A stretch of DNA of 47,187 nt from a virus: the IMG/VR virus record IMGVR_UViG_3300027716_000003; one strand, given 5' to 3'. The notes below the pieces were generated by a model. It searched no databases. It was not told the DNA's origin and was given only the letters and a program-made list of their open reading frames with translations. Both the position numbers and the translations under genes were made by a program. Shown here one piece after another: positions 5,804 through 47,187 of the stretch (its first letter is position 1; each line of letters starts with the position of its first letter).

Positions 5804-6226
5804 ATGATGAACGGCCTCAATCGCGTGATGCTACTCGGTAACCTCGGCGCCGACCCTGAGCTGCGCATGACGGCAGGCGGGCAAGCCGTGCTCAAGCTGC
5901 GCCTGGCGACCACCGAGAGTTATCTCGACCGTGACAAGGCGCGGCAAGAGCGCACCGAGTGGCATAACGTGGTCGTTTGGGGCAAGCGCGCCGAAGGGCT
6001 CGGCAAGATCCTCGGCAAGGGCGATCGCGTCTGCATCGAGGGGGGGCTCCGCACGAGCAGCTACGAGAAGGACGGCGAGAAGCGCTACAAGACGGAGGTC
6101 GTCGCGACGAATGTCGTTCTTTCGGGTGGCGGCAAGAACGCGTCGCGACCCGCCAAACAGGACGACGCCGAGCCCCCCATGGGGCCCGGCGCCGGTGACT
6201 TCGATGACGATGACATTCCGTTCTAA
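5804..6226 (+). CDS. ssb: Single-stranded DNA-binding protein
   Basis: OB-fold signature NRVMLLGNLGADPELR...TEWHNVVVWGKRAE and acidic tail DFDDDDIPF. Confidence 0.95.
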   Translation: MMNGLNRVMLLGNLGADPELRMTAGGQAVLKLRLATTESYLDRDKARQERTEWHNVVVWGKRAEGLGKILGKGDRVCIEGGLRTSSYEKDGEKRYKTEVVATNVVLSGGGKNASRPAKQDDAEPPMGPGAGDFDDDDIPF

Positions 6227-33146: not shown

Positions 33147-33493
33147 GCATCGCACTCGGCAACCGCTACACGTTCAGCTCGCCCACCTTCCAGACCTCGG
33201 CGGGGACGGCGACGGATCCGACGACCGTCAAGTTCTACATGCGCGAGCACGTGGACGGGACCGAGCTCGAATGGACCTACAACGCTTCGCCGACGGCGGG
33301 CACGCACTACCCCGTGGGTATGCAGCCCATCGTGCGGGCGAGCGCGGGGGTGTACTCGGTCGCCTACGACAGCCGCAAGCCCGAGCGGGTGACGGGGTTT
33401 TGGGTGGGGACGGGCACGGTCTACGACGCCGTGCAGGAGACGCTCTTCGTGCGGCACGCAGAACTCGCGCTCATCGACCCGCCGAGTAGCTGA
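33143..33493 (+). CDS. Hypothetical tail-module protein (116 aa)
   Basis: ATGA-coupled start; TGATG-coupled to the fibre gene. Confidence 0.5.
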   Translation: MSIALGNRYTFSSPTFQTSAGTATDPTTVKFYMREHVDGTELEWTYNASPTAGTHYPVGMQPIVRASAGVYSVAYDSRKPERVTGFWVGTGTVYDAVQETLFVRHAELALIDPPSS

Positions 33494-36400
33494 TGGCTGA
33501 TTGCGACGACCGGCAGCTATCGGAGGCCCAGCGCCAGGCGGGCTACCAGAACCAGCGCACGGGGGTGCAGCAGGCGGTGCGCCCCTTCAGCGGGCGGCCG
33601 ACGCTCGACAACCTCATCGACTACATCAACCGCGAGCTGTTCCCCGCGGTGAAGGCGACGCGGAACAAGGTCAACGACGTTTACCTACAGACAACGGACA
33701 ACGCCCCATCGGGCAATCCGCTGCAGTACTACTTCTCGACCGAGACGGCGGCTGCTGATCCCACGGCGGGGCGCGTGCGGCTCAACGCGAGCCCGCAGGA
33801 TACCGCGACGACGCTCCGGGTGAGCGAGCAGAACGCGCGACTCGTCGACGCACGGCCGTGGCTCGAGGTGATGGCGGGCGGCGCGACCACGCCGCTCGGG
33901 GTGGTGACGCTGAGCGACGCCGTGAACCCGGCGAGGTTCATTCGGTTCGACCTCAACTCGATGACCGATCAAGGGGTGTACTGGGATCTCTCCGTCACCG
34001 TCATCGAGAGCAGCCATGACGATCCCTTCGTCGACGGCGGCGGGCTCGTCATCTCGTTCATCCCTGGCGTCGCGAGCACGGGCACGACGGTGCCCGCGGG
34101 CGCGCTCACGCCCATCGGCCCCAACACCGTGCTCGGCAACCCGACGGCAAGCACGGCGGCGCCGACCGAGATCGCCATCGACGATCTGAGCGTGCTCGGC
34201 AGGGCGGGGCTCGCGGGGACCGGCAACCTCGAAGACATCACCGTGCCCGGGACGGGCACGTTCACCGGCGAGAGCGTGTTTCTCCGTTCGCCGTCGGTGC
34301 GCACGTCGCTGCAATTCCGGAACTTCACGCTCGGCGATCTGCCGCTCATCAGCGACAACCGCTTCGTCGGCAACGTGACGGGCGCCACGGCACGGCCCGC
34401 ATACACCGATCTCGCGCAGCTCGCGCAGGATCTATTCGGCATCGGCTGGGATGCGGCGACCCACAACTTCAGGCTCAGCGACGTGCTCGACAACACGTTC
34501 ATGGGCAACACTTCGGGCGCGACGACGTACCCCCAGCCCACGCCTCTTTCCGACCTCGATAGCATCAGCATCACGTATGAGAATGTCGGCAAGTCGTTCG
34601 TGCGCGAAGCGCTGACGGGCGACGTCACGGCGCTGCAGAACAACAACACCGTCACCGTCAACGCGAACGCCATCACGAACGCGAAGCTCGACGACATGGC
34701 GGCCAACACCGTCAAGGCAAACGCGACGGCGAGCACGGCGGATCCGACCGACTTCCCCGTCGGCACGAACAGCGTACTCGGCCGCGTCGCAGGCAACATC
34801 GTCGCCGCCCAGGTCGTGACGGCGCAGATCGCGGACGCGGCGGTGACCAACGCCAAGCTCCGCGACAGCGCGGGGATATCCGTCATCGGTCGCGCGACGA
34901 CCACCACGGGCGTGCCGGCGGACATCGTCGCGACGTTTGGGACCGGCGTCGTGTTGCGCGAGAGTGGCAGCACGATCGGGTGGGGCACGGTCGCTACCGC
35001 CGGTATCGCCAACAACGCTATCACGAACGCCAAGCTCGCTCAGATGGCGCAAAGCCGCGTCAAGGGCCGAGCCGAGGGGGCAGGCACGGGCGACCCCACC
35101 GATCTGACTCCAACCGAGGTCGTCAGCATTATCGACGGCGAGAATGCGACGTGGACGGGCGCGCACTCCTTCACGGGGGCGAGCCATACCGTCAACGTGA
35201 GCGGCGCGGCCAACACGACCGCGGGCGCGACGAGCACGATCCAGACGTCGGCGGGCAACCTGATCCAGGCGTCGGCGGTCGACTACTTGCTGACGGCGCA
35301 AGCCGACGTCGTCATCAACGCGGGCGACACGGCCGGCGGGGTCGCGATTCATGCGGGACTGACCCCCAAGACGGCGGCGAACGATAACCGCGTCACCATC
35401 ACCGCCGACGATCAGGTCGTGCTCGAACCGACGGGCTCGTGCCGCATCTTTACGGGTGGCGTCGAGCGCGTCGAATATGAGTCGACGGGCGCGTGGCAGA
35501 TATCGGGCGCCGTGGGGACCACGGGTCACACCATCGTCACGGCGGGAGCGGGAGCGCCGCCCGCCTGGGGCCAGCTACCGACGGCGGGCATCGCCGACGA
35601 TGCCGTCACGAACGCAAAGCTCCGGAACTCGGGCGCGCTCAGTGTCATCGGGCGAAGCGCGAACAGCACGGGCGATCCGGCGGACATCAGCGCGGTCGCC
35701 GCCTCGGGCTCGGTGCTACGCGAGAGCGGGAGCACGGTAGGGTTTGGCACCATCGCGACAGCGGGCATCACGGATGCGGCCGTGACGAACGCGAAGCTCG
35801 CCGACATGACGGCAGGGACCGTCAAGGGCCGTCAGATCGACGCCACAACGGGTGTTCCGGTCGATCTGACGGGGCTCGAGGTCGCCGAACTCATCCGCTT
35901 CGGCACCACCCAGGCGGTGACGCTCGCCGCGACTACCAACGACCAAACGCTCAACGCTGACACGACCGTCATGCGCATCACGCCCACCGGAGCGCAGACC
36001 CTTACGGGCATCACGGGCGGGGCGCAAGGACGCCTGTTGTTGCTCGAGAATATCGCGGCGGCGGGTAATCCTTTGACGCTCGCGAGCCTCGATGCGGGCT
36101 CGCTAACCGCGAACCGTCTACGCACGCCCGGTGGCGTCGCGCTCGTGCTCGGGTTTCGCGAGTCGGCGATCCTGCGCTGGGAAACGAACAACAACGACTG
36201 GCGTGTCGTGGCCGTGTCCCGCGCGACCGCGGTCGCCGATGCGGATTACGGCGATATCACGGTCACGAGCTCAGGCGCGACGTGGACCATCGACAACAGC
36301 GCCGTGACGCTTGCGAAGATGGCGAATCTCGCCGCCGGCACGGTCATCGGCAGGCAGATTGACGCGAGCACGGGCGTCCCGGTCGCGCTCGCGGGCGCCG

Positions 36401-38079
36401 AGCAGGGCGAGAACATCCGGTTTAACACGCGGCAGACCGTCGCGGCATCGGGCACGCTCGATATCACGCTCAACGATGACACCACCATACTCGTGCTGCA
36501 GCTCTCGGCGGATGCGACGCTACGCTCGATCAGCAACACGGCGAGCGGTGATGGGCGTCTCCTGCGCATCGAGCACGATTCGGGCTCGGCGTTCACGCTG
36601 ACACTCGGTCACAACCTGGCGACGCCCACGTTCTTCCCGCTCTACAACTCCGACGAGGCGGACATGCAGGTCCGGCGGGGCTCGACGGTCGTCTATCGCT
36701 CGCGGTCAGGGTTCTGGCGGCCGGAGATCCCGAGTTCGCGGATGCGAGTTCGCAAGAACTCGACCGGCACGGTGTTCGATCGCGGGCGGTTCAATCTCAT
36801 CGAGGGAACGGGCGTTACCCTCACGGTCACCGACGATAGCTCGAACAACGAGGTCGACGTCACCATCACGGGCGGCGTCGTCAGCGACGGCGACAAGGGC
36901 GACGTCACGGTCAGTTCGACCGGCACCGTCTGGACGATCGACAACGACGTCGTCACCGACGCGAAGCTGCGCAACTCGGGGGCTCTCAGTGTCATCGGGC
37001 GCAGCGCGAACAGCACGGGCGATCCGGCGGACATCTCCGGCACGGCGTCGAGCGATCAGGTTCTGAGGGTCAGCGGCACGACGCTCGGGTTTGGCACCGT
37101 GGCGACGGCGGGGATTGCGAACAACGCCGTGACCGACGCGAAGATCCGCCAGAGCGCGGGGCTCACCGTCATCGGTCGCGCCGCGAACAGTACGGGCGAC
37201 GTCGCCGACATCGGGGCGGGCGTCGACGGGTACGTGCTGCGCCGCATCGGAACCCTGCTCGGGTTTGGCCCCATCGCAACGGCGGGCATCGACGACGACC
37301 AGGTCACGAACGCGAAGCTGCGCAATTCGGGGGCTCTCAGTGTCATCGGGCGCAGCGCGAACAGCACGGGCGATCCGGCGGACATCTCGGCGACAGCGGC
37401 GAGTGGCGCCGTCCTGCGCGAGAGCGGCAGCGCCCTTGGCTTTGGCACCATCGCGACGGCGGGCATCGCGGACGCGGCGGTGACGCTCGCGAAGCAAGCA
37501 AACCTCGCGCAGTCGACCATCATCGGCCGGGCAGAGAGCGCGGGCACGGGCGTGCCCCAGGCGCTCACGAGCACCCAGGTCGCGGCCATCATCGACGGCG
37601 AGCCGTTTACTTGGCTGAGTTCGCACACGTTCAACGGCACGAACCACACCGTCACCGCCAGCGCCGACATCACGCTCACCGCCGGCGGCACGTTGACGCT
37701 CTCCGCAACCACCCAGGTGCAGGCGACGAGCCCGACCCGGCTAGCGAGTTCCGTTGCTCTCGACGGCGTCACGAGCACGGCGACGACGGCGGCCAACGAC
37801 CTCGTGATTGGCTCCGTTTCGGCTGTACGTTTCACGGGGCCTGTCGATCCTCTGACGGGAATGGTGGCCGTGGTGGGCGGTCAAACAGTGCTCCTCGTCA
37901 ACGCGCATGCGTCGACAAACATGGGCGTTCACATGGAGAGCGCGAGTTCGACGGCGGCGAACCGCTTCGCCGGCGTCGGGACCTCGCGTGTCATTCGTCC
38001 CGGCGAGATGGCTCTCGCGTGGTACGACAGCACGAGCAGTCGGTGGCGCCTGCTCTGCCGCGACGAGGTCGACCTATGA
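33493..38079 (+). CDS. Tail fibre (1528 aa) built from reiterated (A/D)AVTNAKL... modules
   Basis: More than 10 copies of the AVTNAKL / ITNAKL / VTDAKL motif. Longer module NAKLRNSGALSVIGRSANSTGDPADIS...LRESGS.LGFGTIATAGI repeated. Last large late gene. Confidence 0.8.
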   Translation: MADCDDRQLSEAQRQAGYQNQRTGVQQAVRPFSGRPTLDNLIDYINRELFPAVKATRNKVNDVYLQTTDNAPSGNPLQYYFSTETAAADPTAGRVRLNASPQDTATTLRVSEQNARLVDARPWLEVMAGGATTPLGVVTLSDAVNPARFIRFDLNSMTDQGVYWDLSVTVIESSHDDPFVDGGGLVISFIPGVASTGTTVPAGALTPIGPNTVLGNPTASTAAPTEIAIDDLSVLGRAGLAGTGNLEDITVPGTGTFTGESVFLRSPSVRTSLQFRNFTLGDLPLISDNRFVGNVTGATARPAYTDLAQLAQDLFGIGWDAATHNFRLSDVLDNTFMGNTSGATTYPQPTPLSDLDSISITYENVGKSFVREALTGDVTALQNNNTVTVNANAITNAKLDDMAANTVKANATASTADPTDFPVGTNSVLGRVAGNIVAAQVVTAQIADAAVTNAKLRDSAGISVIGRATTTTGVPADIVATFGTGVVLRESGSTIGWGTVATAGIANNAITNAKLAQMAQSRVKGRAEGAGTGDPTDLTPTEVVSIIDGENATWTGAHSFTGASHTVNVSGAANTTAGATSTIQTSAGNLIQASAVDYLLTAQADVVINAGDTAGGVAIHAGLTPKTAANDNRVTITADDQVVLEPTGSCRIFTGGVERVEYESTGAWQISGAVGTTGHTIVTAGAGAPPAWGQLPTAGIADDAVTNAKLRNSGALSVIGRSANSTGDPADISAVAASGSVLRESGSTVGFGTIATAGITDAAVTNAKLADMTAGTVKGRQIDATTGVPVDLTGLEVAELIRFGTTQAVTLAATTNDQTLNADTTVMRITPTGAQTLTGITGGAQGRLLLLENIAAAGNPLTLASLDAGSLTANRLRTPGGVALVLGFRESAILRWETNNNDWRVVAVSRATAVADADYGDITVTSSGATWTIDNSAVTLAKMANLAAGTVIGRQIDASTGVPVALAGAEQGENIRFNTRQTVAASGTLDITLNDDTTILVLQLSADATLRSISNTASGDGRLLRIEHDSGSAFTLTLGHNLATPTFFPLYNSDEADMQVRRGSTVVYRSRSGFWRPEIPSSRMRVRKNSTGTVFDRGRFNLIEGTGVTLTVTDDSSNNEVDVTITGGVVSDGDKGDVTVSSTGTVWTIDNDVVTDAKLRNSGALSVIGRSANSTGDPADISGTASSDQVLRVSGTTLGFGTVATAGIANNAVTDAKIRQSAGLTVIGRAANSTGDVADIGAGVDGYVLRRIGTLLGFGPIATAGIDDDQVTNAKLRNSGALSVIGRSANSTGDPADISATAASGAVLRESGSALGFGTIATAGIADAAVTLAKQANLAQSTIIGRAESAGTGVPQALTSTQVAAIIDGEPFTWLSSHTFNGTNHTVTASADITLTAGGTLTLSATTQVQATSPTRLASSVALDGVTSTATTAANDLVIGSVSAVRFTGPVDPLTGMVAVVGGQTVLLVNAHASTNMGVHMESASSTAANRFAGVGTSRVIRPGEMALAWYDSTSSRWRLLCRDEVDL
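36961..37037 (+). repeat. Intragenic 77-nt repeat, copy A (76/77 identical to 37312..37388)
   Basis: Aligned by eye. Single C/T difference. Copies are 351 nt apart (in frame). Confidence 0.85.
37312..37388 (+). repeat. Intragenic 77-nt repeat, copy B; a more diverged copy lies at about 35614-35690
   Basis: Aligned by eye. Confidence 0.85.
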
Positions 38080-38700: not shown

Positions 38701-38910
38701 ATGGCCAACGCCAAACGCCGCCGCACCCAGGGCACGACCGACGACGACTTTGACATGCTGCTCAGTGCCGCGCTCGCTCAGCTCTTGCCCGCGCGCCACA
38801 TCGCGTCCGGTGACTCCTGGTACTTCCGAGTCGAGGGCTCGGGCGACGAGGCGCAGCTCGTCATCACGCGCTCGCGGGCAAACGTGACCACCCCTGATCC
38901 CGAGTCCTAG
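38701..38910 (+). CDS. Hypothetical protein (69 aa)
   Basis: ORF track. Its stop overlaps the convergent stop of 38907..39482. Confidence 0.45.
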   Translation: MANAKRRRTQGTTDDDFDMLLSAALAQLLPARHIASGDSWYFRVEGSGDEAQLVITRSRANVTTPDPES

Positions 38911-39482
38911 AACTCCTCGGGGTTCAATTCGAGGCAGGGCAGGCGCGAGCAGACGCTGTCGAGCGCCGCCGAGTCGATGACGTCGAGCCGCTCCTTCTGC
39001 CCCGACAGCACGCCGTTCGAGTCGACGTGGTCGCCGCCGAGCGCGTGCCCGAGCTCGTGCGATACAGTGCGCGTGCGCTGCGCGGGGCGGGCGTGCGCGT
39101 TGATCTCGATGCGGTCGCGCTCGGCGCTCGTCACGCCGGGCGCCTCGGAGCCATCCGGGCGCAGGACGCTCGCGACGAGCACGACGGGCACGCCGCCGTC
39201 GGCGACGTAGATGTCACAGCCGGTGGCGACGGCCCAGCGAGCGGCCGCCTCTTCCACGTCGCGCCGCAGAGCCTCGTCGGGACCGAATGCCACGTAGCAG
39301 TACGCCTCGCCGACTTCGGCGTCGGGGGGCGGAGTAGATCGCTCGCTCTGGTGGCTGGTTTTACCCGAGGGAGGGGGGGTACCTTCAGGCTTCTGGCACG
39401 CCAGAGCGAGCGGCAGACTGAGTAACAGACCGAGCGCGCGGGTGGGAAGCACAATCGGAAAGGAACGGCAAGAGGGCGCCAT
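38907..39482 (-). CDS. Secreted/lipoprotein zinc metalloprotease (metzincin-type HExxHxxGxxH)
   Basis: Signal peptide with lipobox-like LSLPLALAC. HELGHALGGDH motif. Opposite strand to its neighbours. Confidence 0.7.
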   Translation of the reverse strand: MAPSCRSFPIVLPTRALGLLLSLPLALACQKPEGTPPPSGKTSHQSERSTPPPDAEVGEAYCYVAFGPDEALRRDVEEAAARWAVATGCDIYVADGGVPVVLVASVLRPDGSEAPGVTSAERDRIEINAHARPAQRTRTVSHELGHALGGDHVDSNGVLSGQKERLDVIDSAALDSVCSRLPCLELNPEEF

Positions 39483-40913: not shown

Positions 40914-41162
40914 CTACCAGTCGCCGGGCGGCAGGCGCCGCTCGAGCGCCCACCGCGTCCAGAAGAGCAGGACCGCGTCGGACAGGACGCTCTCGATGCT
41001 GCGTCCTTCGGCTGCCGCTACTCGCCGGAGTCGAGCGCTGTGCTCGGGGGACAGCAGAGCACCTCGAGGATGAACGCCGCCGCCCGCTGCGCGCTCGTCG
41101 GATTGATGGCGTTCGCCCGGAAGAGCAGCACGCGCCAGCCCTGGCGCACGGCCTCGTTCCAC
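40914..41162 (-). CDS. Ribbon-helix-helix (CopG/Arc-like) protein; start uncertain
   Basis: LSPEHSARLRRVAAAEGRSIESVLSDAVLLFW. The nearest upstream canonical start found is GTG 41162, which overlaps the upstream gene by about 145 nt. Confidence 0.4.
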   Translation of the reverse strand: MERGRAPGLARAALPGERHQSDERAAGGGVHPRGALLSPEHSARLRRVAAAEGRSIESVLSDAVLLFWTRWALERRLPPGDW

Positions 41163-41368
41163 TTCTCGTAGTCCGCAGTCATCCCCTTGAACGACTGGTG
41201 TCGGCCGGCGCCGTTGATCTCCGCCGCGAGCTTCTGGCTCGGGAAGGCAAAGTCGAACTTCCACTTGCGTGCCTTGTCGAACGGGAACTCCCGGGTCAAG
41301 TCCCACCCCGGTAGGGCCTGCTCGGCGAGTGCGACCGCGAGCCATTCCTCAGCCTTGCTTCTGGGCAT
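41018..41368 (-). CDS. Vsr/DUF559-like PD-(D/E)xK endonuclease (116 aa)
   Basis: KFDFAFPSQKLAAEINGAGRH...DYEKWNEAVRQGWRVLLFRANAI matches the D..(A/L)vE.dG..H...D..R...L...GW.VLRF pattern. Confidence 0.6.
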   Translation of the reverse strand: MPRSKAEEWLAVALAEQALPGWDLTREFPFDKARKWKFDFAFPSQKLAAEINGAGRHQSFKGMTADYEKWNEAVRQGWRVLLFRANAINPTSAQRAAAFILEVLCCPPSTALDSGE

Positions 41369-41576
41369 GGTCGACCTGCCATTCGAGCACGACGCCCTGT
41401 TCCCCGACGGCGAACTCGTCGTCGAAGGGCGCCGGGTAGACGCCGATCGCCGCATCCGAGGGGATATGGATCCCCTTCGCCTGCGCGATCTCGACGAGCT
41501 CGCGCAGCAGGATGGTGACGGTGACCCTCGTCGTGGTCTTGGACTCGGCCTTCACACGCCACCGATCGCTTTCCAT
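41349..41576 (-). CDS. Hypothetical protein (75 aa)
   Basis: ORF track. Overlaps both neighbours by 20-25 nt. Confidence 0.45.
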   Translation of the reverse strand: MESDRWRVKAESKTTTRVTVTILLRELVEIAQAKGIHIPSDAAIGVYPAPFDDEFAVGEQGVVLEWQVDHAQKQG

Positions 41577-43300
41577 GCGGCGGACGCATCCCAGTCTTCA
41601 TCGTGCAGGTCGTCGCCCTTGTGCCAGAGCTCGAGCGCCGCGCCGAAGCGCATCGCCGCATTGCGCAGGGCATCTCCGATAATCTCCTTCTCGCGCGCGC
41701 CCGGGTCCTGCCCGTTCTTGCTCTGCGCGTTGCCGTAGCCGAGCCGCGTCACGCCGCAGACGGTGAGCTTGATCCAGAGACCGCCGGTCGCGTCGAAGAG
41801 CGGCAGCCCCTTCGGGTCGACGGCCATCGGCTCCCACGTCCACATGGGGTCGGCCTCGAGCAGCCTGTCGGTGAGCGCGGCGTGCCCGACGTAGTCGAGG
41901 TGAATGATGCGCGGGTGGTGCCAGCCGCCGCACACGTTGCAATTGCGCTTCTCGTTCGGCGGGCAGTTGTTCTGCTCCTTCGTGCCTTTCGGCAGCTTGC
42001 TAATCTGATGCTTCTCGAACGGGGCGCGCAGCAGGGCGAGCCCGCGCAAGTTGGCCTTGGCGGGCCCAGGCATGGCCAGGACGGGAGCCGGAGGATTGGG
42101 CACTGCACCGTTCTGTGTAGACGTGATGGTGCGCACGAATGGCGCAGCGGTCTGGGCGGCGCGGGGCTCGCCGAAAGGGATGAACTCCTCCCGCTTTGCC
42201 TTCCGCCACTCCTCCTCGCGCTTCTCCTCCTGCTCGTGCTGCTCGCGTGCCGCGCGGTCGGCGTTGCGCTCGCGCTCGTGCTCGGCACGGGCGGCCGCCT
42301 CCTGGCGCAGGAACTCGTCGGCGCGCGGGTCCTTGCCGATGAGGGGCTCACGCGGCACCGCCCCGCCGCGCGGCCCCTGCTCATACTCGGGCTTGCTCGC
42401 CTGGAAAGCGGGCTCCGCGTCTGCGGCGGCGGCGGCCGCGCTGAGCTCGTGCCGCGAGGGCTCGGGCATGGGCGTGGCGTTGCCCATGAAGCCGTCGAAC
42501 GCGAGCTCGACCTGGGGCGCCATCGTCTCGGCCACCTTCGGCTCGGCGCGCACGAGCAGGGCCTCGGCGTCGAGGTCGAGCTTCGTGTCGAGGGTCGTGA
42601 GCTTGAGCGACAAGACGAGCTGTTCCCAGTTCGCGCGCAGCGACTCCCACACCTTGCCCGAGCCGGTGGCGAGGTGCTCGGCGATGCCCGTCAGCGTCTT
42701 GTGCTCGCCGATGAGGCCGGCGGCTTTGACGGGGCCGATGCCCGGCACGCCCGGCACGTTGTCGCTCTTGTCGCCCGTGAGCGCCAGGAACAAGGGGATC
42801 TGCTCGGGGGTGACCTCGAACTTCTCCTTCACTTCCTTCGGGCCCCGGAAGTATTCGGCGCGCTCGCCGTGCTTGGGGACGAGCTGCAGCACGTTGTCGG
42901 TGACGCACTGAGCGAGATCCTTGTCGGCGCCGACGAGCCAGACCTCCGCCCAGCTCTCGCCGTAGATGCGGGCTAGCGTCGCGATGACGTCGTCGCCTTC
43001 CTTCCCCTTGACGCGCGCCATCGGGTAGCCGCGACTCTTGAGCGCGTCGTAGAGCCAGCGCTTCTGATAGATCTCGGTCGTCTCGGGCTCGACGCGGTTC
43101 GCCTTGTAGTCGGGGAATACTTCCTTGCGATCGTAGGGCGGGTAGTCGAGGCAGAGCACGACGCGGTCGACGCGGGCCGCGACTCGCTCAATCTCGGCGA
43201 GCGTGTTCTGTCCGCCGGCGTTGGGGTTCGCCTCGTAGGTGCGCTTGAAGAGGCAGCCGACGTCGACGAGGGCGATGGTCTTGTTCTGGGGCATGGTCAT
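41552..43300 (-). CDS. Fusion protein: FEN-type 5'-3' exonuclease (PIN+H3TH) + disordered linker + Rad52-like single-strand annealing domain
   Basis: N-terminal: LCLDYPPYDRKEVFPDYKANR, EGDDVIATLA, VGADKDLAQCV, ALTGDKSDNVPGVPGIGPVKAA. C-terminal: LDYVGHAALTDRL...WIKLTVCGVTRLGYG...KEIIGDALRNAAMRFGAALELW parallels the Rad52 core (YIEGH..I...N..FG..GW...V.V.L.DG..HEDVGYG...KEAVTD.LKRALR.FGNALG). Confidence 0.7.
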   Translation of the reverse strand: MTMPQNKTIALVDVGCLFKRTYEANPNAGGQNTLAEIERVAARVDRVVLCLDYPPYDRKEVFPDYKANRVEPETTEIYQKRWLYDALKSRGYPMARVKGKEGDDVIATLARIYGESWAEVWLVGADKDLAQCVTDNVLQLVPKHGERAEYFRGPKEVKEKFEVTPEQIPLFLALTGDKSDNVPGVPGIGPVKAAGLIGEHKTLTGIAEHLATGSGKVWESLRANWEQLVLSLKLTTLDTKLDLDAEALLVRAEPKVAETMAPQVELAFDGFMGNATPMPEPSRHELSAAAAAADAEPAFQASKPEYEQGPRGGAVPREPLIGKDPRADEFLRQEAAARAEHERERNADRAAREQHEQEEKREEEWRKAKREEFIPFGEPRAAQTAAPFVRTITSTQNGAVPNPPAPVLAMPGPAKANLRGLALLRAPFEKHQISKLPKGTKEQNNCPPNEKRNCNVCGGWHHPRIIHLDYVGHAALTDRLLEADPMWTWEPMAVDPKGLPLFDATGGLWIKLTVCGVTRLGYGNAQSKNGQDPGAREKEIIGDALRNAAMRFGAALELWHKGDDLHDEDWDASAAWKAIGGV

Positions 43301-43606: not shown

Positions 43607-43906
43607 TTACCAGCCCGGAACGGGACAGTGGTGATAGAGCGAGCCCTCGGGGGCGGGCCCCGCGCCGGGCTTCCACTCGGGCGGGTAGTAGTCGGGCGCG
43701 TTCGGCCAGGGGTCGAGTATCTCGCAGAGCACGGGGCTGCTCCTGCGCTTGCCGTCCTCGAGCAGCCGCACGCGGGGCGGCTTCTGCCGGAGCTCGAGCG
43801 GCCAGCGCAGACCATCGAGCACGACGAAGAAGACGTCGCCCTTCTTCGCGTACTGGAAGGTCAGGCTCCACGGCACCGGGTGCATGCGCACGGTGGGCGG
43901 CATCAT
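43607..43906 (-). CDS. Hypothetical protein (99 aa)
   Basis: ATGA-coupled start at 43906. Confidence 0.5.
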   Translation of the reverse strand: MMPPTVRMHPVPWSLTFQYAKKGDVFFVVLDGLRWPLELRQKPPRVRLLEDGKRRSSPVLCEILDPWPNAPDYYPPEWKPGAGPAPEGSLYHHCPVPGW

Positions 43907-44151
43907 GTGACCACCTTGAGGTAGCGCAGGTAGTCGCGGCCCGCTTCGGTGAGCGCGAGCCCGCGCGCGATGCGCGGCGTCTTCGTGAGCATGCCCTTGC
44001 GCACGAGGGCGATCACGCTGCAGAAGCCGGTGTGAGGGCTGGTCGTCCCGAAGTGCTTGCCCATCTCCTCGAGCGTCGGGGGGTAGCCGTGCTCGGCGAC
44101 GAACGAGCCGATGAAGCGCAAGACCCGGGCCTGCTTTGGGGTGAGGCTCAC
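43903..44151 (-). CDS. LexA N-terminal-domain-like winged-helix protein (82 aa, no peptidase domain)
   Basis: LTPKQARVLRFIGSFVAEHGYPPTLEEMGKHFGTTSP...LVRKGMLTKTPRIARGLALT parallels the LexA DNA-binding domain. GTGA-coupled. Confidence 0.7.
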   Translation of the reverse strand: MSLTPKQARVLRFIGSFVAEHGYPPTLEEMGKHFGTTSPHTGFCSVIALVRKGMLTKTPRIARGLALTEAGRDYLRYLKVVT

Positions 44152-45278
44152 GCGACCTCCGGGATGGCGCCGCCCGGCGGGACCGGGCCCCACTGCTCGA
44201 GCTGCTCGAGGGTGAGCCTGCCCGTCGGGTCGAAGCCCGCGCGCGCTTGTTTGGCGGCGACGGTGAGCCGCTCGCCGAGCACGTCGCGCCTCGACAGCGG
44301 GGCGGGCAAGGGCTGGGGGTGGTCAGCGAGCACACCTTTCAGCAGAGCCTCGAGCGGGAGCCCGTGCTTGGCCGCGAACGCCCTCTGGCGCGCGTCGGGC
44401 TCGAAGGGCTCCACCGGGAGCGCCGGGCCACGGAAGCCGCTCCTAGGGGCCGTAGCGGCGGAGCGTTGGGCATCCTTCGCCCGGTTCGTCTCCTCCCACG
44501 TTCGCCAGTTGCCGAACTGCTGCCTCACCCACTCGCGTTGATCGCGCACGCCCGACCGCCCGCCGATGCTGGCGAGGTTGCGAGCGGAGGCGAGGCGCTC
44601 GCGGAACCACTCGCGGCTCACGCCGGCGAGCACGGCTTCGTCCTCGAGCCCCGTCTCGTCGAGGCCTTCGAGGTCGTGGAAGCGGCGCACGACGGGGATG
44701 GTGTCGAGCTCTTCGTTATCGAAGCCCTCGCGCGCGGGAGGTACAACAACTTCAGAAGAGGGTTTGGGTTTAGGTTTCGGTTTAGGTGCGTCTACGGTTT
44801 CGCTACTCGCGTCTACGTGTGGACGGGTGTCGACGCGCTCACCGGTCGCGAGGAAGTGATCCTCGGCGTCGTACGGCAGCGGGCCGGTCTCCTCGGGGAA
44901 CGGCAAGGGCAGCTGCTTCGCGCGCTTCTGCTTGGCCCAGTTGCGCTTGCGTGCCTTCTCGGCCTCGCCCTTGGCGCGCTCGCGGTAGGCGACGAAGTTG
45001 ACGATGTGCCAGCCGCGCTCGACCTTGATCGCGCGACGCCCTTCGAAGTCGGGCGTCGAGGAGTAGGGGTCGGGGCTCTCGATGAGAGCGATGGCGGCCT
45101 TCGCCTGGTCGAGGGTGACGCCGGCCTGCTGCGCGACGCCGGGCACGGTGCCGACGACGAAGCCCTCGGGGTCGGCCATGAGCAGGAACCAAATCCAGAC
45201 GCAGCGCGTGGCCGGGTCAGCCGCCCACATGCTGCTCGTGAGGAAGTCGCGGAAGACGGGGGTGTAGGGATGCCTCAT
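44148..45278 (-). CDS. Replication initiation / replisome-organizer-like protein (376 aa)
   Basis: The N-terminal FRDFLTSSMWAADPATRCVWIWFLLMADPEGFV resembles the phage replisome-organizer N-domain. Central PKPKPKPKP linker. Position in the replication block. Confidence 0.45.
   Translation of the reverse strand: MRHPYTPVFRDFLTSSMWAADPATRCVWIWFLLMADPEGFVVGTVPGVAQQAGVTLDQAKAAIALIESPDPYSSTPDFEGRRAIKVERGWHIVNFVAYRERAKGEAEKARKRNWAKQKRAKQLPLPFPEETGPLPYDAEDHFLATGERVDTRPHVDASSETVDAPKPKPKPKPSSEVVVPPAREGFDNEELDTIPVVRRFHDLEGLDETGLEDEAVLAGVSREWFRERLASARNLASIGGRSGVRDQREWVRQQFGNWRTWEETNRAKDAQRSAATAPRSGFRGPALPVEPFEPDARQRAFAAKHGLPLEALLKGVLADHPQPLPAPLSRRDVLGERLTVAAKQARAGFDPTGRLTLEQLEQWGPVPPGGAIPEVA
44761..44837. 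promoter_or_regulatory. Candidate origin region inside the organizer gene: (GGTTTN)x4 followed by GCGTCTACG, GCGTCTACGTGTGGACG and GGTGTCGACGCG
   Basis: Read directly. The 17-mer is 16/17 identical and the 12-mer 12/12 identical to modules at 1009-1047. Confidence 0.4.
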
Positions 45279-45481: not shown

Positions 45482-45681
45482 ATGCCCTCCGGCAGGGGCA
45501 AACCATCCTCCGGCAGGGGCAAACCATCCAGCCTAGCGAGCAGAGTCTCGGCGTGCCGGCGCAGCTCGTCGTTGCTCTGGCGCAGCTCGGCGACCTGCTC
45601 GCGCAGCGCGGTGATGGTGTCGCGCATGACGGCGATGGTGTCGTCGGTGTAGGTGCTTTCGGTTCGGCTGAACTCGGTCAT
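45478..45681 (-). CDS. Coiled-coil protein (67 aa) with duplicated DGLPLPE C-terminus
   Basis: ATGA overlap with the int stop. Helical sequence ALREQVAELRQSNDELRRHAETLLARL. Confidence 0.5.
   Translation of the reverse strand: MTEFSRTESTYTDDTIAVMRDTITALREQVAELRQSNDELRRHAETLLARLDGLPLPEDGLPLPEGM
45488..45529. repeat. Perfect 21-nt tandem duplication TCCGGCAGGGGCAAACCATCC x2
   Basis: Read directly, at 45488-45508 and 45509-45529. Confidence 0.9.
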
Positions 45682-47187
45682 GACTTCCTCCGGCGGGCGT
45701 CGAGTGAGGAGACGTTGTCGGGGGCTACCGCACGTCGGCGCTTGGCGACCTCCAAGAGGGCCGTGGCGGAGTCGAGATCGCCCTCGCTCATCGCCAGGCG
45801 CACGGCGAGCTCGAGGGCCTCGTCGAGGCTGCCGAGTAATGGCCGGGAGTTCTGGCCGGCGGCAGTCGCACCGAGTGGTTTGGCGTCGTTTTCGAGGTCA
45901 CCCGAAACGACTCTTCCATGCGAAAACCCCTTAAAAACAGCTTCGGTCTTGGACTCCGAAGCCAAGGGTCGAAGGTTCGAATCCTTCCGGGCGCGCAGCG
46001 ATATCATTGAGCTTTCTCCTTCCTTGGATACTTTCTCAGACCGAGTTTCGGCCGAGAGCTGGCCAATATTCGGTGAGCCGAAGGTGCTCGCTGGGTGAGC
46101 AGAAGGGGCGATGGTCATCACCTGGCGCTCACCTTCCCGCGACTGACCCGAGGGCAAGAGTCTGCTCGGCACCGCCCCCGCCGGCACCGCGAGCGCCTCC
46201 GTCGGGTTCTGCAGATAGCGGCCGTGGGCGCGCAAGTCGGAGGCGTGCCCCGTCAAGGCCGCGCTCGTCTGCACGTTGACCCCCGCCTTGCCGAGCGCCT
46301 GGCTCCACGCCCGTCGCCAAGAGTGGAAGTCGACGGGCAGCGTGTACTTCGTCTCCTCGAACAGCTCCCGCTCCTTACCCGTCATCGGGCGACCCGGCAC
46401 CCAGCGGCCGACGGGGCCCCTCTGCCCGCGGCCGGCGTCTGGGTCCCAGCGCTCGATACCGAGCGCGCGCCGGAGGTCCTGGCGCATCGCGTGGGCGTGG
46501 CTGTCCTGCGTCTCGCGCAGGCCGCCGGCGCTCTCTCCCCGGAGCAGCGGGAACACCGGACCCTTGCGGGGCCGCCCCTGGTGCACCCACCAGCGATAGA
46601 CGACCGGAGCGAGCCCCTCGGGCACCTCCATGCGCTGGGGCGCCGCGCCCTTCGTGCGGGGCACCCACGCCTCGGCGAACGAGGGCTCTCCGCTCGCGTC
46701 CTCGTCGAGCAGAAAGTTATCCTCCCAGGTCGCGACGTGCAGATCGTTGGTGCGCTCGCCGCCGAGGCAGCGCGCGATGCAGCTCATCGTCTGGCGCATG
46801 AGCACCCCGACGCGGTGCCGGGGCACGGGGTGCTGCCAGGCGAGATACGCGAGCAGGACCTCGTCGCGCGCCACGGCCCGCGTCTTGTCGAGCGTCGCCT
46901 TGAAGAGCGGCATCCGCGCCTTCGGATCGTCCATGGTGGCGAGCCCCGCGCTCTCGAACGTGAACTTGAGCGCCTTTCGGAGATGCTTCACGTGGTCGTC
47001 CGAGTAGCCCCGGCTGCGCTGATCCTCGAGCAGCGCCTTCACTTCGTCCGGGGTGATGGCCGCGATGGGGCGCGCTCCGAATGGCAGTGGGTGGCTCTCG
47101 GTCACGAAGGGGTAGGCGTGGTTTCGAAGGCGCCCCTCCTCGATGTCGACGCGCGAGACCTGGCGCGCCTCTCGCGCTCGGAGCGCG
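45678..47187 (-). CDS. int: Tyrosine integrase, main part (N-terminus continues at 335..1); carries a 178-aa extension after the catalytic Tyr
   Basis: R (GGERTNDL), HSWRR, TGH and HGRYLQ, with the Tyr codon at 46215-46217. The ORF continues to 45678 through the tRNA-like attP core. Confidence 0.9.
   Translation of the reverse strand, partial: ALRAREARQVSRVDIEEGRLRNHAYPFVTESHPLPFGARPIAAITPDEVKALLEDQRSRGYSDDHVKHLRKALKFTFESAGLATMDDPKARMPLFKATLDKTRAVARDEVLLAYLAWQHPVPRHRVGVLMRQTMSCIARCLGGERTNDLHVATWEDNFLLDEDASGEPSFAEAWVPRTKGAAPQRMEVPEGLAPVVYRWWVHQGRPRKGPVFPLLRGESAGGLRETQDSHAHAMRQDLRRALGIERWDPDAGRGQRGPVGRWVPGRPMTGKERELFEETKYTLPVDFHSWRRAWSQALGKAGVNVQTSAALTGHASDLRAHGRYLQNPTEALAVPAGAVPSRLLPSGQSREGERQVMTIAPSAHPASTFGSPNIGQLSAETRSEKVSKEGESSMISLRARKDSNLRPLASESKTEAVFKGFSHGRVVSGDLENDAKPLGATAAGQNSRPLLGSLDEALELAVRLAMSEGDLDSATALLEVAKRRRAVAPDNVSSLDARRRKS
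45949..45995 (+). other. attP core candidate: 3' portion of a tRNA-Arg(CCG)-like sequence (anticodon arm to discriminator), antisense inside int
   Basis: TTGGA/CTCCGAA/GCCAA anticodon arm (anticodon CCG; the 31-39 pair is mismatched), variable GGGTC, T-arm GAAGG-TTCGAAT-CCTTC, and acceptor CGGGCGC plus G. No D-arm and no 5' acceptor GCGCCCG upstream. Confidence 0.7.
47089..47187. repeat. Terminal direct repeat, copy 2 (identical to 1..99)
   Basis: Base-by-base comparison. Confidence 0.95.

Follow-up and report, generated by a model that had tools for sequence, protein, structure and literature searches.

Lambda Exo and Beta, RecE and RecT of Rac, and G34.1P and G35P of SPP1 follow a common plan in which a 5′–3′ exonuclease and an annealing protein are encoded together in the early region. 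Lambda Exo/YqaJ and RecE have PD-(D/E)xK folds. In T7, the nuclease is instead gp6, a duplex 5′–3′ exonuclease of the FEN family that is needed for recombination and is stimulated by gp2.5, an annealing single-stranded DNA-binding protein (SSB) (PMC4124056). Here we describe a gene in IMG/VR virus record IMGVR_UViG_3300027716_000003 (47,187 nucleotides, called the window below) that resembles these systems and places both predicted activities on one chain. The open reading frame (ORF; 41552-43300, minus strand) runs uninterrupted for 582 residues and comprises a FEN nuclease, a linker, and a Rad52-like annealase. A reading of the letters alone (hereafter the sequence-only reading) had proposed such a fusion without giving a strand, and our analysis upholds it. 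Our favored interpretation, to which we assign a probability of about two-thirds, is that the gene encodes a single-chain exonuclease-annealase (“SynExo”-like) recombinase.

The window gene differs from the lambda, Rac, and SPP1 pairs in joining the nuclease and the annealase through a tether of about 160 residues. It also departs from the classical SynExo pairs, which use an Exo/RecE-type nuclease, whereas the nuclease here is of the FEN/Pol I type. Judging from its domains, the fusion can work in a SynExo-like manner without belonging to the classical Exo/RecE pairings. T7 gp6 and gp2.5 provide a precedent for a FEN-family enzyme that makes recombinogenic single strands in cooperation with an annealing protein (PMC4124056). 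Unlike the fusion, however, they are separate proteins, the partner is an OB-fold SSB, and T7 is a virulent phage with its own replisome. This unlinked pair is the only precedent we found, and with the fusion the Rad52 and RecT annealases would gain a FEN-type nuclease as a partner. In the searchable literature, including surveys and reviews of single-strand annealing proteins (SSAPs) and Lopes et al. 2010, no account of a naturally fused exonuclease and annealase came up, nor of a FEN nuclease covalently joined to an annealase of the Rad52 or RecT type, a result that does not prove the absence of precedent. In our view, the components and the overall logic are known; what is new, as variants on that logic, is that the two activities are covalently joined, that the partner is a FEN nuclease, that the tether is structured, and that cassettes are exchanged recurrently.

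To judge from its conserved residues, the N-terminal half makes up an entire 5′ nuclease of the FEN/Pol I type and shows no sign of degeneration. It consists of an N-terminal, resolvase-like nuclease domain (residues ~5-161; 42818-43288, minus strand) and an H3TH (SAM-fold) DNA-binding domain (residues ~163-255; 42536-42814, minus strand) that contains D177, D180, and a GVPGIG motif. Both exceed the Pfam gathering thresholds: residues 43-161 match 5_3_exonuc_N (PF02739; E 7.9e-20, 71.6 bits against a threshold of 34.3), and residues 163-246, including the GVPGIG motif, match 5_3_exonuc/H3TH (PF01367; E 2.5e-22, 79.6 bits against 40). The Pol I and 5′–3′ exonuclease models of NCBIfam all score below threshold (160 bits against 720 for Pol I). 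Among PDB sequences, this half matches mycobacterial Pol1 (6vde, E 8e-25), Taq Pol I, Xni, and T5 FEN, with E values from 8e-25 to 1e-12. D52, E101, D103, D104, D126, D128, D177, and D180 align with Taq D67, E117, D119, D120, D142, D144, D188, and D191, respectively, while the correspondence of D13 with Taq D18 was drawn by eye only.

When 40 fused homologues were aligned, all nine of these carboxylates proved invariant, as did the helical-arch residues Y65, K66, and R69. The predicted local distance difference test score (pLDDT) of a full-length model exceeds 90 over residues ~5-255. The FEN/Pol I hallmarks that the sequence-only reading placed within about the first 250 residues agree with both Pfam matches and with the invariant carboxylates. 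All eight motifs that it quoted are present in the translation at defined residues, those of this half being DYPPYDRKEVFPDYKANR (52-69), EGDDVIAT (101-108), GADKDLAQ (124-131), and GDKSDNVPGVPGIGPVKAA (176-194). Bacterial DNA polymerase I, which supplies the closest relatives of this half, likewise tethers a FEN domain at the N terminus of a second DNA-processing module, but there the partner is a polymerase rather than an annealase.

The C-terminal domain is placed by its fold together with weak, recurrent sequence matches to one family. PHROGs assigns residues 418-572 to phrog_3290, “single strand annealing protein” (E 2e-49). Of 45 relatives, 20 match Pfam Rad52_Rad22 (PF04098) weakly (best E 0.0055), and this is the only family to come up repeatedly. 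From an alignment of 45 sequences, AlphaFold2 predicted the structure of residues 405-582 with confidence (pLDDT 89.4, predicted TM-score [pTM] 0.77). The model contains a predicted Rad52-fold annealase core at residues ~416-556 (41633-42055, minus strand) with a strand-helix core, a β-hairpin at 507-524, and a long helix at 533-550. In a Foldseek search of the PDB, the top 19 matches were all Rad52-type annealases (probability 0.99-1.00, E 6e-5 to 1.7e-2). These included human RAD52 (5xrz, 5jrb, 8bjm, 1kn0, 8rjw, and 8rj3; best E 6.1e-5 for 5xrz_A), yeast Mgm101 (9yi6, 9yi7, and 9yi9; best E 1.2e-4 for 9yi6_A, with TM-scores of 0.49/0.55 and a root-mean-square deviation of 3.2 Å), and Sak of phage 80alpha (8qe9 and 8pq8; best E 5.4e-4 for 8qe9). 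Among predicted viral structures (BFVD), the matches start with a mycobacteriophage orthologue (E 7e-17) and grade into proteins named Rad52/59/22, SAK3, and ERF. Based on the model, the domain is a member of the Rad52 superfamily at the level of fold, and not of the Pfam Rad52_Rad22 family. The sequence-only reading had put its Rad52 core pattern at stake in exactly such a structure search, and the pattern holds at the fold level.

Although the domain shares its core fold with RAD52, Mgm101, and 80alpha Sak (Foldseek probability 1.00), it is 11-20% identical to them in sequence, is fused to a nuclease, and ends in a short C-terminal tail. By eye, GYG...KEIIGDALRNAAMRFGAAL (521-556) parallels the GYG-containing segment 125-162 of human RAD52, with GYG...KExxxDxL(K/R)xAxxxFGxAL as the common pattern. 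The stretch KEIIGDALRNAAMRFGAALELW (residues 538-559; 41624-41689, minus strand) corresponds, again by eye, to RAD52 144-165, the helix that lines the inner groove for single-stranded DNA (ssDNA). In this by-eye alignment, R546 lies opposite RAD52 K152, N547 opposite R153, and R551 one position past R156. Both R546 and R551 are invariant across the family. The quoted motif GVTRLGYG falls at residues 516-523.

A Cys/His cluster, CNVCGGWHHPRIIHLDYVGH (residues 454-473; 41882-41941, minus strand), forms a candidate zinc site. In 45 diverse family members, C454, C457, H467, and H473 never vary and H461 seldom does; Mycobacterium phage Marvin and Streptomyces phage ZL12 keep these residues in their stand-alone genes. 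From this pattern, we infer that the cluster binds zinc. It includes CNVCGGWHH (454-462) and LDYVGH (468-473). The former had been described as a knuckle inserted into this protein, but it is a hallmark of the whole clade, stand-alone actinophage genes included. To our knowledge, the structures of RAD52, Mgm101, and Sak lack the CxxC...H...H cluster that is invariant in the window clade. The window protein also has the other features of that clade, namely the phrog_3290 profile, the cluster in its extended form CxxC...H...HLDYVGH, and a GDALRNAxMRFG helix. Its last segment (residues 557-582, ELWHKGDDLHDEDWDASAAWKAIGGV; 41555-41632, minus strand) is an acidic and aromatic tail of low pLDDT, with a consensus, LHxEDWDAxxAW, that is conserved among fused forms.

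Between the two domains lies a linker of about 160 residues (256-415) that is mostly disordered in the full-length model (overall pLDDT 74.4). A first disordered segment (residues 258-323; 42332-42529, minus strand; pLDDT <50) carries the conserved motif FDGFMGNATPMPEP (42452-42493, minus strand). It is followed by a predicted single long helix of 48 residues (325-372; 42185-42328, minus strand; pLDDT ~60-79) composed of 29% E, 21% R, and 19% A, with the motif IGKDPRADEFLRQE (residues 321-334; 42299-42340, minus strand) at its N-cap. The motif EFIPFGEP (residues 372-379; 42164-42187, minus strand) comes next, and a second disordered segment (residues 373-415; 42056-42184, minus strand; pLDDT <50) forms the leader of the annealase cassette. 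The sequence-only reading had proposed an E/R/K/A-rich linker of about 170 residues; at about 160 residues the linker is somewhat shorter, and it is partly structured and carries conserved motifs. By analogy with ER/K single α-helices, the helix could act as a semi-rigid spacer.

Conservation within the linker extends across fusions with either of two annealase types, Rad52-like and RecT, and all three motifs (FDGFMGNATPMPEP, IGKDPRADEFLRQE, and EFIPFGEP) are kept in both. P279 is invariant and P277 nearly so in the 40 aligned fused homologues, in which G322, D324, and P325 are also nearly invariant. A PMPE-type motif occurs in 25 of 43 Rad52-type and 36 of 70 RecT-type fusions, and a GKDP-type motif in 35 of 43 and 49 of 70, respectively. 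Median linker lengths are 158 residues in the Rad52-type (n = 43) and 150 residues in the RecT-type proteins (n = 70). Pfam returned nothing meaningful for the linker alone at E ≤10. The conserved motifs may be binding sites for a partner or may make intramolecular contacts.

The nearest RecT-type protein (P0031) is 73% identical to the window protein over residues 3-379 by BLASTP, with no identity beyond. Because identity stops there, EFIPFGEP, the last segment common to the RecT-type relatives, marks the junction at which annealase cassettes are swapped, at about residue 379. The junction motif, EEFIPFGEP (in some relatives EFDPIG), comes after an acidic helix and looks like an SSB tip that has been internalized; the SSB of this phage ends in DFDDDDIPF. 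The motif might be left over from a docking tail at the C terminus of an ancestral, stand-alone FEN.

The architecture is widespread. In a large protein database, full-length homologues with 38-93% identity and ~100% coverage fall into dozens of clusters. We re-classified the 120 closest protein clusters with domain queries and found FEN-linker-RecT in 70 and FEN-linker-Rad52-like in 43. One further cluster has the reverse order, Rad52-like-FEN (P0064, confirmed by Pfam), five have the Rad52-like domain without FEN, and one is a frameshifted FEN-RecT (P0032). In using a genuine RecT domain, the sister fusions share the logic of the two-component phage recombinases. Across the 114 fused clusters, the exchange partner is never a plain OB-fold SSB. 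A midpoint-rooted neighbor-joining tree built from 112 FEN domains shows the Rad52-like and RecT types thoroughly intermixed; parsimony requires at least 14 switches between them, a rough count for a tree of this kind. P0032 was considered as a natural split. It lies on a 2.5-kb contig (L087) as a 441-residue FEN-linker ORF and an overlapping 131-residue RecT-like ORF that sum to ~572 residues, the length of a fused protein; on this one short contig, a frameshift error or a pseudogene is likeliest, and programmed frameshifting is possible.

An intact fusion occupies the same slot on independent contigs from SRR26556840, SRR26556795, SRR26324621, GCA_040384165.1, and JGI samples. The slot reads, in order, a sigma-r4-like helix-turn-helix gene, a ~350-residue protein, a LexA-type repressor, two small ORFs, the fusion, an overlapping small ORF, and a DUF559 gene, with lysis genes beyond DUF559 on the opposite strand. 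A phage with a RecT-type fusion is syntenic with the window phage throughout. More divergent fused members lie in other early-gene settings, one near Prim-Pol and DUF968 genes and one downstream of Toprim and DnaB genes. Neither fused form is present in 50,697 records of deposited phages, in which no record covers at least 80% of either query. The species-representative genomes yielded a single fused copy, on a 5-kb contig of a Thermomicrobiales metagenome-assembled genome. Given the intact, syntenic copies on independent contigs, the fusion is real and not an artifact; the split ORF that the sequence-only reading had named as the result to watch for was not observed. The survey of fused and split homologues that it called for shows the fused state in 43 Rad52-like and 70 RecT clusters and a split pair in mycobacteriophage Marvin.

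In Marvin, the exonuclease gene gp62 (phrog_466, E 3.8e-61) is immediately followed by the annealase gene gp63 (phrog_3290, E 2.5e-82), and the two genes overlap. Consistent with the earlier expectation that exonuclease and annealase are normally separate, this annealase clade is thus also found as one of two adjacent genes. Gp63 is orthologous to the C-terminal domain of the window protein (49-55% identity, a range that also covers WIVsmall, Plumbus, Eish, and pZL12.29c of ZL12), has the same Cys/His cluster, and is paired with an exonuclease. Unlike the fusion, the Marvin system uses two overlapping genes, its exonuclease belongs to phrog_466 rather than to the FEN family, and gp63 has a C-terminal extension of ~200 residues. 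Gp62 itself had no Pfam or PDB sequence match. Stand-alone members of the family generally carry C-terminal extensions of 80-200 residues where the fused forms have a short tail, a difference that would fit the loss of a partner-docking tail upon fusion.

The phrog_3290 clade is large, with 2117 clusters at 50% identity (893 at E ≤1e-30) and at least 7973 at 90% identity, and it has no Pfam family. Its labels in deposited phages are inconsistent: SSAP, SSB, DprA-like, RecT-like, and hypothetical. In a scan of species-representative genomes, stand-alone C-terminal domains were common in Alpha- and Betaproteobacteria, and the other matches were unrelated FEN/Pol I genes. Some stand-alone proteins (P0255, P0317, and P0249) end in DDDIPF, EDNIPF, or EDSIPY, like the C-terminal tip of bacterial SSB, an ending absent from the fused proteins. 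These tails suggest that such members recruit SSB-interacting partners. The Rad52-like/zinc domain also appears fused to an HNH endonuclease (P0108), with long uncharacterized C-terminal regions (P0113, P0106, and P0120), and as tandem duplications within one protein (P0306, P0330, P0339, and P0352). Phenylobacterium sp. J367 (NZ_JAJONA010000001.1) has two identical-scoring stand-alone annealase genes (L011 and L012) ~45 kb apart, which could represent two related prophages or a duplicated element.

Three observations above all lead us to favor a recombinase. The Rad52-like cassette exchanges with RecT at a fixed junction and in the same slot; as RecT is an established annealase family, the cassette that it replaces would be expected to do the same job. 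The fusion exists in both domain orders, and actinophages pair this annealase clade with an exonuclease that has a gene of its own. In addition, the need for a replisome-associated, primer-removing FEN is not evident in a phage without a recognizable replisome. From its domains, we infer not only a recombinase activity but also the nuclease polarity on duplex DNA, the annealing, the oligomerization, and the hand-off from one domain to the other. At a double-strand end, the FEN domain would thread the 5′ strand through its helical arch and degrade it in the 5′→3′ direction, like T5 D15 and T7 gp6, exposing a 3′ single strand. The Rad52-fold domain, kept near by the tether, would bind this nascent strand ahead of SSB and, like other annealases of the Rad52 type, presumably assemble into a ring or filament. 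It could then anneal the strand to a complementary one, whether at a second resected end, in the gap of a replication fork, or in a terminal redundancy, after which the flap-cutting activity of FEN could trim 5′ flaps. In such a scheme, the covalent link would stand in for the specific contact that lambda Exo-Beta and RecE-RecT need, and it may anchor an otherwise poorly processive FEN on its substrate. Candidate biological roles would be genome circularization or concatemer formation, repair, and mosaic exchange.

We also entertain, tentatively and at somewhat less than even odds, a more specific form of this proposal. Here the natural single-chain recombinase would have had its annealase cassette swapped at least 14 times at the fixed junction under selection acting on the annealase, while the nuclease and tether were kept. 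A normally distributive FEN would be held on the substrate and would hand the 3′ strand directly to an annealase ring tethered by the E/R-rich spacer helix, and a single gene would then be enough for recombineering with double-stranded DNA. The selection might be for compatibility with host SSB or for escape from annealase-sensing defenses.

Several points weigh against a recombinase. The annealase label of phrog_3290 appears to derive from remote homology, and we found no biochemical characterization of the clade in the searchable literature. The window C-terminal half had no Pfam match even at E ≤10, and a profile of the 45-sequence family found no solved Rad52 structure among PDB sequences, with noise at E >1. 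BLASTP gave no alignment of the domain with human RAD52 125-178, a segment that we verified against 1h2i and 1kn0. The TM-scores of the Foldseek matches, 0.41-0.55 for full-length chains, are moderate. A Rad52 fold is no guarantee of annealing: DdrA, which has this fold, acts chiefly in the protection of 3′ ends. Compared with the toroidal lambda Exo, FEN enzymes are generally lower in processivity, and flaps are the principal substrate of many of them; efficient resection over long distances can therefore not be taken for granted. A predicted oligomer would also have to accommodate eleven or so bulky N-terminal appendages, and on two long metagenomic contigs with a stand-alone annealase there was no recognizable nuclease neighbor.

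One could instead suppose a flap-processing enzyme of replication or repair, in which FEN removes RNA primers or 5′ flaps, like the Pol I 5′ nuclease, T4 RNase H, and T5 D15, and the Rad52-like or RecT domain does no more than bind ssDNA and so direct the nuclease to gaps, forks, or displaced strands. FEN-family enzymes are indeed chiefly flap and primer-removal nucleases, the best sequence matches here are Pol I 5′ nuclease domains and Xni, and T7 gp6 removes primers too (PMC4124056). The window encodes a phage SSB, and the divergent fused members lie near Prim-Pol or Toprim/DnaB genes. Yet in the window phage, which has no recognizable polymerase, primase, or helicase, host Pol I would already remove primers. 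The swaps between two annealase families, and never to an OB-fold SSB in 114 clusters, point to annealing as the selected activity, and the split actinophage counterpart is an exonuclease paired with an annealase. We consider flap processing unlikely on this balance. An artifact, in which adjacent FEN and annealase genes were merged by a frameshift error or a chimeric contig, deserves almost no credence. P0032 is split into 441- and 131-residue overlapping ORFs, and the exact window protein is absent from the gene-position collection. However, the two halves of P0032 sum to the fused length, which indicates a single frameshift in one contig, and the fused ORF is intact in 113 FEN-first clusters and one reverse-order cluster. 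It is also intact on independent contigs of different samples with the same neighbors, the linker motifs are conserved at the protein level, and G+C content at third codon positions (GC3) is uniformly high across the ORF.

A factor that acts without strand annealing, in end processing or protection, host takeover, or anti-defense, seems quite improbable. In that case the Rad52-like domain might cap 3′ ends like DdrA while FEN degrades host or competitor DNA or remodels phage ends. The Rad52 fold alone is no proof of annealing, as DdrA illustrates (see PMC515370), and T7 gp6 participates in the breakdown of host DNA (PMC4124056). Cassette swapping could also mirror an arms race with defenses that sense annealases, a notion raised for Firmicutes SSAPs (PMC8093625). 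Such an arms race, however, is compatible with a recombinase and does not replace it. Wholesale degradation of host DNA is unlikely for a genome that looks temperate, with a LexA-like repressor and weak integrase-like and ImmA/IrrE-like matches, and the alternative cassette, RecT, is an established annealase family.

If the fusion is a recombinase, as we favor, its covalent form lets the role of exonuclease-annealase contact in proximity, stoichiometry, hand-off, and processivity be tested directly by altering the tether. As a compact, single-gene exonuclease-annealase that comes in two annealase flavors and 114 clusters among the top 120, it is a candidate recombineering tool for high-GC and non-model bacteria. 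Junction-precise exchange of cassettes between near-identical phages is a clean natural case of domain-level modularity, and it may report selection by host factors or defense systems. The survey also exposes an annotation gap, as a clade of more than 2,000 clusters at 50% identity has no Pfam family.

The ORF has the codon-position GC content typical of a genuine gene in a 68% GC genome (GC1 0.69, GC2 0.45, GC3 0.91). The sequence around its start is AAAGGAACATGACCATG, in which the stop codon of the ORF upstream runs into the first ATG. A second ATG (43294, residue M3) follows AAAGGA by ~10 nt and is better spaced than the first, and the 93%-identical homologue P0001 starts at the equivalent of M3. 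The true start may therefore be the second ATG, a difference of two residues.

The first 99 bases of the window are repeated exactly, in direct orientation, at 47089-47187. This terminal repeat is an assembly overlap, so the window represents a complete circular or terminally redundant phage genome of ~47,088 bp. Contigs related to the phage measure 47.4-48.4 kb. The window is 68% GC and encodes a tailed phage, whose structural genes form a module at ~12-38 kb. A megablast search of 17 kb of the window against deposited phages found no match, and the large terminase is at most 29% identical to that of any isolate phage. By these comparisons, it is an uncultured phage without a close cultured relative. 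We found no tRNAs and no attachment site in the window, and no recognizable polymerase, primase, or helicase among its genes. The phage is probably temperate and reliant on the host replisome.

Upstream of the fusion, in the same leftward operon, is a gene for a repressor with a LexA-type DNA-binding domain (43903-44193, minus strand; phrog_362 transcriptional repressor, E 1.3e-12); a LexA_DNA_bind gene is also present in the syntenic relatives. A 475-residue protein (45678-47105, minus strand) has a weak match to Phage_integrase (E 0.0024), and 38907-39482 (minus strand) has a weak match to the ImmA/IrrE M78 peptidase family (E 1.2e-4). The integrase-like, ImmA/IrrE-like, and LexA-type genes are probably signs of a temperate lifestyle. 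The SSB gene proposed earlier at 5804-6226 (plus strand) is confirmed by its match to phrog_44 (E 5.5e-47); its product, which has the DFDDDDIPF ending, probably plays an accessory part in recombination.

The 3′ end of the fusion gene overlaps by 25 nt a 75-residue ORF (41349-41576, minus strand) that has no PHROG match. ORFs of 68-92 residues hold this position in all syntenic relatives examined (L085, L089, L091, and L092). The 75-residue protein might assist the recombinase in the manner of Gam or Orf; no Gam-like gene was recognized near the fusion. The next gene downstream (41018-41368, minus strand) was called a Vsr-like nuclease by the sequence-only reading. It does match DUF559, which has a Vsr-like fold, but weakly and just under the Pfam cut-off (PF04480, E 4.4e-4, 20.5 bits against 20.6); its phrog_503 match has an E value of 3.7e-18, and the gene is syntenic in relatives. 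Elsewhere in the window, a tail-fibre-like gene of 1528 residues (33493-38079, plus strand) contains internal repeats, with four copies of a ~281-nt unit and 12 copies of a ~49-nt unit at ~174-177-nt spacing. A fibre or adhesin built from repeats would explain this pattern.

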